DNA from: an uncultured archaeon
GTDB taxonomy: Archaea; Asgardarchaeota; Heimdallarchaeia; Heimdallarchaeales; Heimdallarchaeaceae
Reading direction: 5' to 3'
Assembly (NCBI GenBank): GCA_964549075.1
Contig: CAZJUB010000074.1
Location: forward strand, 1-12,881
Length of the DNA: 12,881 nt
Both the position numbers and the translations under genes were made by a program. The first letter of the stretch is position 1. Every line of letters starts with the position of its first letter. Below the pieces are notes generated by a model. That model was not told the DNA's origin. It was given only the letters and a program-made list of their open reading frames with translations, and did not search any database. Shown here piece after piece: positions 500 to 4,610 of the stretch.

Positions 500-1366
500 T
501 CAAGAACTAAAGAAATCAGCTAATTTCTGTTGCCCTTTAAAAACAGTTTTTTTAGGTTCAATTACAATAAGTCTTTTTTCTGCTAAAATTTCTTTGAATT
601 TTCTTGCAGCAGGTGGAGCATAACCAGAAAAGTGGTTGTTGATAAAAACATACCCACTGCTCTTATTTGGATTATTTTGATAAGCTTCTTGTAACTCATG
701 TGCTGTTTTTTCTATTAAACTAGTTCTATCTTTGAGTTCTCTTCCTAGACCAATTGGTTGTTGATGAGATCCAATTAGTCTCAAATAGAAATATTCTTTT
801 TTCACTTCTTCGAATAAATTAAATTTTATGTATGGTAGGTACGAGCTTACAATCCCTAGTTTTTTTTCATTAAGGAGATCATAGGTTTCTTGGTTAAACC
901 ATGTTGCATGCCTAAATTCTATTATTAGTTCATATTCATTGTGAGGAAAGAAATCAATAAATTCAATTATTTGTTCTAGATTAGTTTCGTTCCTCTCAAA
1001 ACTGGGTTGGAGTTGCATGACAAGAGGACCAAGATTCTTCTTCAGAGGACTCATTATATTTAGGAAATCATTAAGCTGTTTTTCAACTCCTGAAAGATAA
1101 TCAGATTGACAAATTGATTTAGGTATCTTTGCTGTTAAGATGAAATCTTCAGGAAGTAATTTAGCCCATCTTGTAGTTGTTTGGAATTTAGGAAAGGCGT
1201 AGAATGTTGAGTTTATCTCGCAAGTTGTAAATCGGGTACTATAATATTCAAGTAAATCCAAATTATTAATCTTGGAAGGATAAAAACCTCCTGAACTACT
1301 TTTCCAGTCTTCATAATTGAATCCTGTACATCCAACATGAATTTTTGCATCTTGCATTTCTCTCAT
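500..1366 (-). CDS. DUF72 (YecE-like) TIM-barrel protein
   Basis: Motifs IHVGCTGFNYEDW, FYP, LEYYSTRFTTCEINSTFYAFP, LGPLVMQLQPSF, IEFRHATW, YLRLIG and YVFINNH...AP match the DUF72 family. Alternative ATG at 1357. Confidence 0.93.
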   Translation of the reverse strand: MREMQDAKIHVGCTGFNYEDWKSSSGGFYPSKINNLDLLEYYSTRFTTCEINSTFYAFPKFQTTTRWAKLLPEDFILTAKIPKSICQSDYLSGVEKQLNDFLNIMSPLKKNLGPLVMQLQPSFERNETNLEQIIEFIDFFPHNEYELIIEFRHATWFNQETYDLLNEKKLGIVSSYLPYIKFNLFEEVKKEYFYLRLIGSHQQPIGLGRELKDRTSLIEKTAHELQEAYQNNPNKSSGYVFINNHFSGYAPPAARKFKEILAEKRLIVIEPKKTVFKGQQKLADFFSS

Positions 1367-1451
1367 CCAAATAGCATTTTTTTACTATAAAAATATCTAA
1401 AATAGCTACTAAAAGCTTTCTAACAATTGCGGATGAAACTATTAGAATGTA

Positions 1452-1476
1452 TTTAAAAAGAAAAACGGTTGTTTTT
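1452..1476 (+). promoter_or_regulatory. Candidate archaeal TATA-like box (TTTAAAAA, 1452-1459) followed by the inverted repeat AAAAAC-GGTT-GTTTTT (1461-1476)
   Basis: The box starts ~25 nt upstream of the first base of the 1477-1565 stem. The inverted repeat has perfect 6-bp arms and sits between the box and the predicted start site. The AT-rich context weakens significance. Confidence 0.4.
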
Positions 1477-1565
1477 ATGCCGATAGGCCCCCTTGCCAAG
1501 AGGATGCATGAGTGGTTAAATACTTCGTGTGGTAGCCACTCAAATTTCCTCTTCAATATCGGCAT
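1477..1565 (+). ncRNA. Candidate structured non-coding RNA (89 nt, three-way junction or long rod), family not recognised
   Basis: ATGCCGATA(1477-85)/TATCGGCAT(1557-65) forms 9 bp; GGC-CCCCTT-GCC is a mini-hairpin (1486-97); AAGAGGA(1498-1504)/TCCTCTT(1547-53) forms 7 bp; a 4x4 internal loop follows; TGAGTGGTTA(1509-18)/TAGCCACTCA(1533-42) forms 10 bp with one G-U; the apex is ATAC-TTC-GTGT with one G-U. It is 42/89 GC in an AT-rich intergenic region, and the G-U pairs only work on the + strand. Confidence 0.62.
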
Positions 1566-1614
1566 TTTCCACCACTTTGAAATTCTTATTTTAATTCTCA
1601 ATGTCTCTTCAGAT

Positions 1615-1658: not shown

Positions 1659-2966
1659 ATGATGGATGCTATTTCAATTATAAGCAAATATATGCTCGCT
1701 GATGGTTTTGATATGGTTGTCGACCTTGATAAAAGCCATGGAAGCAGATTAGTTGATAAAAAAACTGGTAAAAGTTATTTAGATTTCTTCTCGTTCTTTG
1801 CTTCTTCTCCTATAGGATTGAATCATCCAAATTTGTTGGACGATGATTTCTTAAAAAGATTAGCAAGAGTAGCAGTAAATAAACCAAGTTGTTCAGATTT
1901 TTATACAGAAGAAATGGCCGAATTTGTTGAGACTTTTGGGAGAGTAGGGATACCTGGTTTTCTTCCAAATTTGTTCTTAATTAGTGGTGGAGCTTTAGCA
2001 GTAGAAAATGCTTTAAAAGCATCTTTTGACTGGAGAGTTAGAAAGAATTTCAAAAAAGGATATACCAATGAATTGGGGAGTAAAGTTATTCATTTTAAAC
2101 AAGCTTTCCATGGGAGATCAGGATATACATTGAGTTTAACCAATACTTTTGATCCACGAAAAACCAAATATTATCCTAAATTTGATTGGCCTCGTGTATC
2201 TAATCCAAAAGTAACTTTTCCAATCGAAGAAAATTTCGAACAAATAATGATTGCGGAAGATAAGAGCATTCAAGAAATACACGAAGCAGTAGAAAAATAT
2301 GGCGATGATATCGCATGTTTAATTATTGAACCTGTACAAGCAGAAGGGGGAGATAATCATTTCCGTCCTCAATTCTTTAAAAGGTTAAGAGAGCTAGCAG
2401 ATATTCATGACTTTTTACTAATATATGATGAAATTCAAACTGGAGTAGGTATGACAGGCAAATTCTGGGCTTTCGAACACTTTGAAGGTGGTCAACCTGA
2501 TATTCTTTGTTTCGGAAAGAAAATGCAAGTCTGTGGAATTCTCGCTTCCAATAGAATCAAAGAAGTTGAAAAAAGTGTTTTTGAAGAAAGTAGCAGAATT
2601 AATAGTACCTGGGGAGGAAATCTAGTTGATATGTTTCGAGCAACTAAATATCTTGAAGTTATTGAAAAGGAAAAACTAGTAGATAATGCTGCTAAGATGG
2701 GAGAGTATATGCTACGTCAAACTCAGGAGTTACAAGAAGATTTCTCCGAAAAGATTTCTAATGCACGAGGACTAGGTCTTTTAATTGCTTTTAATTTGAC
2801 TAGTGCTGAGAAAAGAAACAAGGTCAAACAACAAGCTTACAAACAGAATCTTTTACTCTTAGGTTGTGGAGAAAAAACAATTCGTTTCAGACCTTATTTA
2901 AATGTTAATGAATCTGAAATTGATGAGGGTATGAATATTCTCAGAGATATTTTAAAAGAACTCTGA
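1659..2966 (+). CDS. lat: L-lysine 6-transaminase (class III PLP-dependent aminotransferase)
   Basis: MLADGFDMVVDLDKSHGS, YLDFFSFFASSPIGLNHP, NKPSCSDFY, GGALAVENALK, AFHGRSGYTLSLTNT, IEPVQAEGGDNHF, DEIQTG, FGKKMQVCG (PLP lysine) and SRINSTWGG are the motif set of lysine epsilon-aminotransferases. Confidence 0.93.
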   Translation: MMDAISIISKYMLADGFDMVVDLDKSHGSRLVDKKTGKSYLDFFSFFASSPIGLNHPNLLDDDFLKRLARVAVNKPSCSDFYTEEMAEFVETFGRVGIPGFLPNLFLISGGALAVENALKASFDWRVRKNFKKGYTNELGSKVIHFKQAFHGRSGYTLSLTNTFDPRKTKYYPKFDWPRVSNPKVTFPIEENFEQIMIAEDKSIQEIHEAVEKYGDDIACLIIEPVQAEGGDNHFRPQFFKRLRELADIHDFLLIYDEIQTGVGMTGKFWAFEHFEGGQPDILCFGKKMQVCGILASNRIKEVEKSVFEESSRINSTWGGNLVDMFRATKYLEVIEKEKLVDNAAKMGEYMLRQTQELQEDFSEKISNARGLGLLIAFNLTSAEKRNKVKQQAYKQNLLLLGCGEKTIRFRPYLNVNESEIDEGMNILRDILKEL

Positions 2967-3020: not shown

Positions 3021-3054
3021 TTTATATTCAATTCTTGTTGCTAGCACAAGGTGA
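3021..3054 (+). promoter_or_regulatory. Candidate TATA box (TTTATATT, 3021-3028) and RBS (AGGTGA, 3049-3054) for the formiminotransferase operon
   Basis: Box is ~30 nt and GGTGA is 4 nt upstream of the ATG at 3059. Confidence 0.5.
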
Positions 3055-3058
3055 AAAA

Positions 3059-3970
3059 ATGCCTTTAGTTGAGTGTGTGCCTAATTTTTCAGAAGGAAGA
3101 AGGCAAGAGGTTATCGATCAGATTCTTGATGTTATTAAAAAAGCTGGTAAAATCACTCTTTTAGACAGTCGTATGGATCCTGATCACAACCGTGCTGTGG
3201 TTACATTCATTGGAGAACCTAATGAATGCGTTAAAGCTGCATTTGCAGGATGTAAAAAAGCAGCTGAATTAATAGACTTAAACCAACATGAAGGAGAACA
3301 TAACCGTTTTGGTTCTACAGATGTTATCCCCTTTATTCCTGTTTCAGATATTAGTTTAGAAGAATGTGCTGAACTTGCTAAGAAACTTGGAGAAAAAATT
3401 GCTAAAGATTTGAAAATTCCTATTTATCTATATGGAGACGCTGCTATTATCCCAGAAAGAGAAGTACTTCAGAATTACAGGACAAAATCCTTCCAATATG
3501 AACAGCTGAAAGAAGAAATAGCAACTAATGATAAATATATTCCCGATTTTGGAGAGAGGAAAGTTCATCCAACAGCTGGTGCAACCAATGTTGGTGCTCG
3601 TAATTTTCTAATAGCTTACAACATTTACTTGAATACTGATGATATGGAAGTTGCTAAAGCTATTGCTAGAAATATCCGATTCTCTGGAGGAGGATTAAGA
3701 TTTATTCAAGCTGGAGCTATGAATATTGAAGAAAGAGGTGTTGTTCAAGTTTCAATGAATGTAACTAATTATACAGGAACTCCTTTACATCGAGTTTTCG
3801 ATATGGTTAAGCGTGAAGCTGAAAGATATGGTGTTGCAGTAACAGAATCAGAAATTTATGGTATGCTACCTTTAGATGCTCTTCTTGATGCTGCAGAAAA
3901 CTATTTACAATTAAATAACTTTGACAGATCTCAAATTATCGAAAAAAGAATTTTTGGAAAAAGTGAATAA
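3059..3970 (+). CDS. ftcd: Glutamate formiminotransferase
   Basis: MPLVECVPNFSEGR, DPDHNRAVVT, IDLNQHEGEHNRFGSTDVIPFIP, HPTAGATNVGARNFLIAYN and VQVSMN. The start was moved from the track's 3035 to the ATG at 3059, behind AGGTGA. Confidence 0.95.
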   Translation: MPLVECVPNFSEGRRQEVIDQILDVIKKAGKITLLDSRMDPDHNRAVVTFIGEPNECVKAAFAGCKKAAELIDLNQHEGEHNRFGSTDVIPFIPVSDISLEECAELAKKLGEKIAKDLKIPIYLYGDAAIIPEREVLQNYRTKSFQYEQLKEEIATNDKYIPDFGERKVHPTAGATNVGARNFLIAYNIYLNTDDMEVAKAIARNIRFSGGGLRFIQAGAMNIEERGVVQVSMNVTNYTGTPLHRVFDMVKREAERYGVAVTESEIYGMLPLDALLDAAENYLQLNNFDRSQIIEKRIFGKSE

Positions 3971-3971
3971 A

Positions 3972-4610
3972 ATGGCTGAAATGTTAATAGATAAAGTAAT
4001 AACTGAGTTTTTAGATGAGCTTGCTAGTAATTCTCCTGCTCCAGGTGGTGGAGCCGCAGCTTGTTTAGCTGGTGCTATGGGAGCTGCTCTAGGATCGATG
4101 GTTGCTAGATTGACCATTGGTAAAGAAGGTTACGAAGATGTAGAAGAATTTTTCAAAGCTAAGCTTGAAAAGACTGAAACTCTTCGTAAGAAATTAACAG
4201 AACTGACAGATAAAGATGCTAATGCTTTCAGTGGTGTAATCAAAGCTTTTGGTATGCCTAAAGATACAGAAGAACAAAAAGTTGCTCGTTCAGCTAAAAT
4301 ATTAGCTGAGTATAAAATAGCTGCAGAAGTTCCTCTTGAAACTTGTAAAGCTTGCAGAGAAGTGATTGATCTTCAAATTGAAATGGGAACAAAAGGAAAT
4401 CGACAAGCACTTTCTGATATTGCTGTAGGTGCACTGTGTGCTTTAACTGGTCTTAAGAGTGCGTTGCATAACGTTGAGATCAATTTAGGATGGATTAAAA
4501 ATAAAGATGCAGAATATGCTGAAAAGATGTATGCAGAGCTAGAAGGGCTTATTGAAGGTGTCGACGAAAAAGTCAACGAATTAGATAAAGAGATAAAAGC
4601 AACTTTCTAA
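3972..4610 (+). CDS. Formiminotetrahydrofolate cyclodeaminase / methenyl-THF cyclohydrolase (FTCD_C family)
   Basis: FLDELASNSPAPGGGAAA, LGSMVARLT, DANAF, AAEVPLE, GNRQALSD and ALHNVEINL. ATG at 3972 follows the ftcd stop after a 1-nt gap, implying coupling. Confidence 0.93.
   Translation: MAEMLIDKVITEFLDELASNSPAPGGGAAACLAGAMGAALGSMVARLTIGKEGYEDVEEFFKAKLEKTETLRKKLTELTDKDANAFSGVIKAFGMPKDTEEQKVARSAKILAEYKIAAEVPLETCKACREVIDLQIEMGTKGNRQALSDIAVGALCALTGLKSALHNVEINLGWIKNKDAEYAEKMYAELEGLIEGVDEKVNELDKEIKATF

Follow-up and report, generated by a model that had tools for sequence, protein, structure and literature searches.

The window, by which we mean the whole 12,881-nucleotide stretch of DNA that was analysed, comes from a Heimdallarchaeaceae genome (G000) whose 3.23-Mb assembly comprises 217 contigs and is ~90% complete. 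A DUF72 gene and a class-III aminotransferase gene that is lat-like (lysine 6-transaminase) lie on either side of the structured element studied here, which is preceded by a promoter box and a TATA box (Table 1). Further downstream on the plus strand, formiminotransferase (Pfam FTCD_N plus FTCD) and cyclodeaminase (FTCD_C) lie in two overlapping ORFs (3035-3970 and 3921-4610) and are not fused.

Table 1. Features of the locus and of two related genes elsewhere in the genome, with the basis for each assignment
Feature	Position	Strand	Basis or remark
DUF72 gene	500..1366	-	Pfam DUF72 7.7e-46; divergent constant neighbour
Upstream promoter box TTGCGGATGAAACTATTAGAAT	1427..1448	+	near-invariant across 21 genus homologues
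TATA box TATTTAAAA of the putative RNA gene	1450-1458	+	sequence
Putative small RNA gene, ~90 nt	1477..1568	+	fold, covariance model 86 bits, T-run
9-bp closing stem	1477-1485/1557-1565	+	MFE fold
5′ hairpin option (U)GCC-GAUA-GGC	1478..1488	+	rivals 9-bp closing stem in G000
3-bp side hairpin GGC-CCCCUU-GCC	1486-1497	+	MFE fold
Putative seed (tip) CCCCUUGCC	1489..1497	+	invariant in 21/21 genus RNAs
P3-P4 stem-loop, GAGGA...UCCUC around GAGUGG...CCACUC	1498..1553	+	folds thus in 21/21 genus RNAs
7-bp helix	1498-1504/1547-1553	+	MFE fold
10-bp helix	1509-1518/1533-1542	+	MFE fold
TTTT run, then CCACCAC tail	1565..1575	+	TTTT at 1565-1568
Class-III aminotransferase (lat-like), not in RNA unit	1659..2966	+	Pfam Aminotran_3 1.5e-81
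266-aa TPR protein gene	contig C44 15535-16335 (L193:1588-2388)	+	Pfam TPR_12 1.3e-22
72-aa winged-helix regulator gene	contig C9 61304-61519	-	Pfam HTH_24 4.8e-8, MarR 6.9e-7

The MFE fold of 1477-1565 (+) contains the 9-, 7- and 10-bp helices, the side hairpin and the CAA linker that a preliminary description of this DNA had recognized, and its apical helix has 3 bp where that description had counted 4. The energy of this fold is -39.7 kcal/mol, compared with -19.9 ± 2.9 kcal/mol in 200 dinucleotide shuffles (z -6.93), none of which (0/200) folded as well, and the minus strand of the element folds less well (-33.3 kcal/mol, z -4.16). The element has a GC content of 47.2%, while the flanking spacers have 23.6% and 29.0%, in agreement with the 47% in an AT-rich spacer reported before. 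The two non-Watson-Crick pairs, at 1516/1535 and 1521/1531, are both U.G on the plus strand, again as had been described.

The element had also been said to lack the hallmarks of the known RNA classes, and our searches agree with this. Rfam 15 at the gathering score gave no matches in the window (riboswitches, 5S, SRP, C/D, H/ACA, HgcC and others), and at E<=10 on 1300-1750 it gave four weak matches, none overlapping 1477-1565. ARAGORN found no tRNA or tmRNA genes in the window. Readings of the element as a C/D or H/ACA RNA were dropped because the motifs are absent, with the K-turn and ACA judged by eye. A reading as a MITE or other dispersed repeat, against which a copy-number check had been proposed, is ruled out because the element is single-copy: it occurs once in the 3.23-Mb assembly of G000, and there is one copy per genome in the 21 genomes matched by the covariance model described below.

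The upstream box is 19-20 nt long, has the form TTGCGGAT-RRAACTAYTAKAA and is located just upstream of the TATA box. Every homologue is preceded by TKGCGGATRRAACTAYTAKAAT followed by a TATA box, and this block is more conserved than the RNA itself; in 21/21 homologues, the distance from GCGGA to the conserved (U)GCC 5′ end downstream of it is 48 ± 1 nt. On the 3′ side, 13 of the 14 homologues checked have a run of at least four T residues after the core, and in G013 the first such run lies ~30 nt further on. Transcription of the RNA would start near 1477 and would end at the T-run, with oligo-T acting as the archaeal termination signal here and with read-through into 1569-1575 possible. Both the TATA-like box before the closing stem and the following T-run had been pointed out previously, and so had a separate TATA-like box of lat, which is indeed present at 1617-1625 (TTTATAAAG). 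A promoter and a terminator of its own, which are expected of a putative base-pairing sRNA, can thus be recognized for this RNA at the level of sequence. Beyond the first T-run, a tail with the sequence UUUUCC(A/U)CCAC is common to the window's subgroup, to genus g2 (G025, locus L205) and to a metagenome locus (L383); the tail either belongs to a longer transcript or represents another C-rich element.

We searched for homologues in the genus of the window (g1; 25 genomes including G000) and in the family, which has 31 genomes in five genera (g1-g5). The genus genomes are close kin, and counts over the genus are not independent. BLASTN found homologues in 12 of the 24 other genus genomes, and a covariance model built from 14 homologues gave exactly one match in each of 21 of the 25 genus genomes, G000 included. 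With the stricter filters used for large sets, the model had no matches in 58 genomes from 17 other genera of the class. Candidatus Heimdallarchaeota AB_125 is a member of the genus, and its locus (L089) matches the locus of G010. The four genus genomes without a model match (G002, G015, G019 and G022) have assemblies that are 76-89% complete, and in G015, G019 and G022 only the other box-bearing locus was found. In G002 (L222, contig C206, 1-141), DUF72 and the box promoter are kept, and the next 93 nt, up to the contig end, are unlike the RNA; either the RNA gene was lost or replaced there, or the assembly breaks. A metagenome scan with the box returned at least 114 loci, and three carry the RNA among the matches listed.

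Conserved throughout the genus are the 5′ hairpin, the invariant CCCCUUGCC and a covarying stem-loop. The GCC/GGC stem of the 5′ hairpin is kept in 20 of 21 homologues around a loop that varies (GAUA, AAUA, AAAAUAA, UUUA or AAAA, and GCAU in metagenome locus L393). In the P3-P4 stem-loop, two-sided changes are seen at three positions of P4 (G-C/U-A/G.U/A-U, G-C/U-A/C-G and C-G/U-A/U.G), and the U.G and G.U pairs fit the plus strand only. These pairs were counted on per-sequence folds because MAFFT, applied to the whole RNA and to P3-P4, misaligns the 3′ strands of divergent subgroups. When the alignment was instead fitted to the model, 91.7% of cells were paired, compared with 83.1% in shuffled alignments and 44-57% for slid partners. 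The fitted alignment has nine pairs with two-sided changes versus 2.7 in shuffles, with 0/500 shuffles as high; this figure of nine is generous, since some of these pairs come from a one-column shift in two rows. The homologue search and covariation check that had been suggested for this element thus gave 21 of 25 genus genomes and a P4 helix that covaries at three positions.

The way in which the RNA molecule is closed differs among members of the genus. The three-way junction of the preliminary description (model A) is the MFE fold in the window's subgroup, and it is the MFE fold in only 4 of the 21 genus members (G000, G001, G020 and G023). In model B, a 5′ hairpin UGCC-loop-GGCA is followed by unpaired (A)CCCCUU and by a closing helix between GCC... 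and 3′ ...GGC. Of the 20 genomes that allow the comparison, 15 have a lower energy for model B than for model A and 5 the reverse; model B is the MFE fold in 14, and G021 fits neither model by forcing. An extra hairpin of different sequence precedes the tip in two subgroup members. An insertion in G004 and G007 shifts the tip beyond the first 34 nt, and both keep the g1 8-mers. The second, more stable fold of the window's subgroup might gate the tip.

The conserved promoter, the oligo-T, the single copy, the lack of an Rfam match and the presence in 21 of 25 genus genomes bear out the earlier suggestion of a stand-alone small RNA of a new class. From these sequence features we are confident that 1477 to ~1568 (+) is a genuine sRNA gene. 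The RNA family is a previously undescribed one that would act like a known kind of regulator.

The RNAs of the other genera have diverged, and we located them by inspection of the box and of synteny. In the G025 (g2) RNA, the tip is CCCCUAGCC and belongs to a long unpaired stretch that UGCCCAAA/UUUGGGCA closes, and the G026 (g3) RNA is shorter and has the tip CCUCUU. The RNAs of G027 and G030 (g4) were found by DUF72 synteny and present the tip CCCCAA in the loop enclosed by CCUAG/CUAGG; in G028 (g5), the tip is in the loop of CAAGC/GCUUG. Family-wide, the promoter, the position and an exposed C-rich tip persist while the scaffold differs between genera. DUF72 is upstream and divergent in 17 of the 19 genus loci with sequence there, and it is beside the RNA also in G025, G026, G027 and G030; in G028, only a fragment is present, ~1.3 kb off. 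Outside the family, no box was found at <=1 mismatch in G031, G033 or G036, and the G036 DUF72 homologue has no box or RNA beside it.

At <=1 mismatch, the box has 46 matches in the 25 genus genomes, compared with one for the reversed control pattern; 17 genomes have two matches, two have three and six have one. Only three promoters in G000 bear the box, namely those of the RNA, of the 266-aa TPR protein gene and of the 72-aa winged-helix regulator gene. In a weight-matrix scan of G000 these scored 35.9, 34.7 and 21.6, respectively, with the next best match at 15.4, and a looser scan of the same genome for GCGGA before AT-rich stretches gave no further convincing promoter. The regulator promoter has two tandem TTGCGGATAAA boxes and a TATA box, and GCGGA boxes are at the same distance from the TATA box of this promoter in all five genera. 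The regulator protein is 93-100% identical within the genus and is found in 31/31 family genomes, and its best relatives outside the family are at most 57% identical and may or may not be orthologues. The box TTGCGGATGAAACTATTAGAAT is probably the operator of this 72-aa regulator, which is the box-binding candidate because the box lies in its own promoter. For the 266-aa TPR protein there is, in addition, a match to Pfam SNAP (soluble NSF attachment protein) at 2.7e-13, which passes the family cut-off and may be a generic TPR likeness.

The 9-mer CCCCUUGCC that forms the tip occurs nowhere else in the genome. For its C-run, the mean probability of being unpaired is 0.75 in G000 and at least 0.75 in 15 of 26 family RNAs; in 11 of the 26 it is 0.32-0.50, so that half or more of the C-run is predicted to be paired. 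The conserved, accessible seed that is looked for in a putative base-pairing sRNA is therefore found here, with invariance in 21/21 genus RNAs and accessibility at the level of 0.75 or more in 15/26.

The leader of the regulator gene contains GCAAGGGG in 24/24 genus genomes, and this is the perfect complement of the tip CCCCUUGC, giving 8 contiguous pairs. The leader of the TPR gene contains GGCUAGGGG in 14 of 16 cases, which makes 9 of 10 pairs with ACCCCUUGCC. Both mRNAs thus carry GC[AU]AGGGG at Shine-Dalgarno distance, ending 9-10 nt before the start codon. GC[AT]AGGGG occurs 23 times on both strands of G000, the RNA gene's own antisense included, and it precedes an ATG-started ORF at Shine-Dalgarno distance only in the regulator and TPR genes; two other copies precede GTG or TTG frames that look internal. 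When 4818 ORF 5′ windows were ranked by duplex energy with the tip, TPR was 3rd and the regulator 12th, and TPR was 4th among the 2703 ORFs that remain when those below 100 aa are left out. Other 5′ regions score as well as TPR (C29:14233, for example), and against dinucleotide-shuffled TPR leaders z is only -1.2 to -3.0.

Between genera, the tip and the regulator site change together. In g2, the tip CCCCUAGC makes 8 contiguous pairs with GUUAGGGG, with A-U replaced by U-A and C-G by U.G, and in g3 the tip AGCCUCUU makes 8 contiguous pairs with AAGAGGUU, with G-C replaced by A-U. The pairing is down to 5 bp in g4 and g5 (UGGGG:CCCCA and AGGGG:CCCCU). A conserved, co-varying mRNA site, as expected for a putative sRNA, is therefore present in the leaders of the genus, with compensatory changes in g2 and g3 and with the 5-bp limit in g4 and g5. 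In a cross-genus energy matrix, cognate pairs are not consistently better than non-cognate ones because all share the C-run/G-run core. In g2 the pairing of the TPR leader is poor (-8.6 kcal/mol, z -0.9), which weakened the TPR gene as sole target, and the regulator recovered by the weight-matrix scan was added to the set of targets. G028 also has a perfect GGCTAGGGGTT, which was rejected as a leader site because it makes up one arm of a hairpin in a spacer, immediately downstream of an open frame and its stop codon.

A second contact could be formed by the 5′ UGCC of the RNA (1477-1481 region), which pairs with the GGCA of the regulator AUGGCA (start plus codon 2). In g3 and g4, GCCC faces AUGGGC at the regulator start, and one genus subgroup is without the contact (start AUGACG). 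The 16S 3′ end reads ...GGAUCACCUCCU in G001 (g1) and G027 (g4), and GGTGA/AGGTG is enriched before ORFs; it is therefore plausible that the G-run at -10 is a Shine-Dalgarno element, if a slightly unusual one. The 16S of G001 (L278, contig C8, ~1480-1515 minus) and of G025 (L277) has an extra ~30 nt that G027 is without. This stretch forms a hairpin, GUAUGUA...UACAUAC, between ...CCUGCGGA and GGAUCACCUCCU, and it may be a small 3′-terminal expansion or an intron-like insert.

We propose the following circuit. An sRNA of ~90-105 nt would be made from its own box-bearing TATA promoter and would end at the oligo-T. The 72-aa winged-helix (MarR/HTH_24-like) protein would bind the box, with an effect whose sign, like the binding, we infer, and so would control its own gene together with those of the TPR protein and the RNA. 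The tip CCCCUUGC(C), which is invariant and for the most part unpaired, would pair with GCAAGGGG in the regulator mRNA and with GGCUAGGGG in the TPR mRNA, and the position of these sites 9-10 nt before the start codon means that pairing would mask the ribosome-binding site and lower translation. The outcome would be a feedback loop of the mixed transcription-factor/sRNA type, to which the TPR gene would be coupled as a co-regulated output. We lean slightly toward this circuit as a whole, in which a trans-acting sRNA masks ribosome-binding sites in a loop with its own regulator.

Several other explanations have to be weighed against this circuit. It is scarcely credible that there is no RNA gene at all, and that the element is instead a small leaderless protein gene starting from the ATG at 1477 or a chance or DNA-level palindrome. 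There is indeed an ATG at the inferred start with a 61-codon frame open in G000, and a 96-codon minus-strand frame overlaps the element, but the first codon is CTG or TTG in relatives, the minus-strand frame is without a Pfam match and the covariation preserves base pairs rather than codons. In addition, 1-nt indels shift the frame in the conserved 5′ part, and the small-ORF reading was dropped on these indels. The preliminary description had offered a cis-regulatory leader of amino-acid catabolic genes as its other possibility and had asked whether homologues always precede lat. At 10 of 20 genus loci the RNA is followed by a lat-like gene of the same orientation, as it is by lat in G026 and G028, which makes DUF72 - RNA - lat the probable ancestral order. 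The existence of two alternative folds would likewise suit a cis-acting leader or riboswitch of lat. Yet in the other 10 genus loci the downstream genes fall into unrelated BLASTP clusters or have the opposite orientation, and an oligo-T run and a separate TATA-like box intervene between the RNA and lat. The architecture of the RNA, moreover, differs between genera, and Rfam gave no riboswitch match. A riboswitch or cis leader would be expected to have a constant gene class downstream and a conserved aptamer core, and we found neither; as the sequences stand, an architecture that varies while only the tip and promoter persist is unlike that of a ligand-binding aptamer. We therefore consider the cis-leader explanation very improbable.

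The explanations that accept the RNA or its promoter but not the pairing deserve separate attention. A possible, if less probable, account is that the RNA is real and box-controlled and acts otherwise, through protein binding, other mRNAs or a structural or sponge role, with the leader matches as a by-product. The 5-bp pairing in g4 and g5 and the weak pairing for TPR in g2 are what one would expect in that case, and within the genus the first 40 nt of the RNA show more conservation than a seed of 9 nt would require. The invariant GAGG/CCUC and GUG/CAC of P3-P4 could be a protein site, and other genes rank as well as TPR, C-rich tips finding G-rich Shine-Dalgarno sequences anyway. This account is countered by the finding that both of the box-sharing protein genes carry the 8-mer at Shine-Dalgarno distance, out of 23 copies in the genome, and by the two compensatory changes between genera. 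The shared 8-9-mer might also be a second operator at the DNA level, downstream of the start sites, without RNA-RNA pairing. The motif is within about +13 to +35 of the inferred start in all three units, and a DNA site would co-vary between genera too. However, Shine-Dalgarno spacing of the motif is kept in both mRNAs and across g1-g3, its orientation in the RNA gene is in every case opposite to that in the mRNAs, and within the structured RNA it falls in the unpaired part, so that a second operator seems quite improbable. For the proposed circuit, the reach beyond the genus is a matter of even balance in our judgment: the regulator, the TPR (SNAP-like) gene and the sRNA may form a family-wide module under one operator, with the tip co-evolving with the ribosome-binding site of the regulator.

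To our knowledge, RNA-based regulation in Asgard archaea is almost unexplored, and in the titles and abstracts that we searched, no trans-acting sRNA is described from Asgard or Heimdall archaea. In Firmicutes, the exposed C-runs in loops and linkers of RsaE/RoxS pair with the G-rich ribosome-binding sites of several mRNAs, and conservation in these RNAs is highest in the seed, with a variable scaffold. The Heimdall RNA has a like C-rich seed; it belongs to a different domain of life, however, and neither homology nor an Hfq-type chaperone is implied. In E. coli, OmpR controls the sRNAs OmrA/B, which pair with the regulator's own mRNA near the translation start, and the loop proposed here is alike, although the Heimdall loop could be negative or double-negative. 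Unlike OmpR-OmrA/B, the Heimdall circuit has an archaeal promoter, with the box just upstream of the TATA box. The closest described case is Methanosarcina mazei sRNA162, an archaeal trans-acting sRNA that is also a cis-antisense RNA on its neighbour MM2442 (PMC3510493). Both RNAs are archaeal, and trans action is proposed for the Heimdall RNA too. We saw no relation of sequence or structure between the two, and the Heimdall RNA has no Rfam match here. The abstract on sRNA162 reports no drive of the sRNA by a factor that it targets (PMC3510493), whereas the Heimdall RNA, its putative target regulator and the TPR gene share one box.

The kind of mechanism is an ordinary one, as masking of a ribosome-binding site by an sRNA is known in bacteria and in Methanosarcina. 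The proposed circuit is testable, since its operator is defined, it has one candidate regulator and two candidate targets, and compensatory variants occur naturally, and with these it offers a concrete entry point to post-transcriptional control in uncultured or newly cultured Heimdall archaea. The new family could join the RNA databases, which would allow such intergenic regions to be annotated. Should the module prove true, no trans-acting sRNA circuit would have been defined before it in the archaeal lineage closest to eukaryotes.
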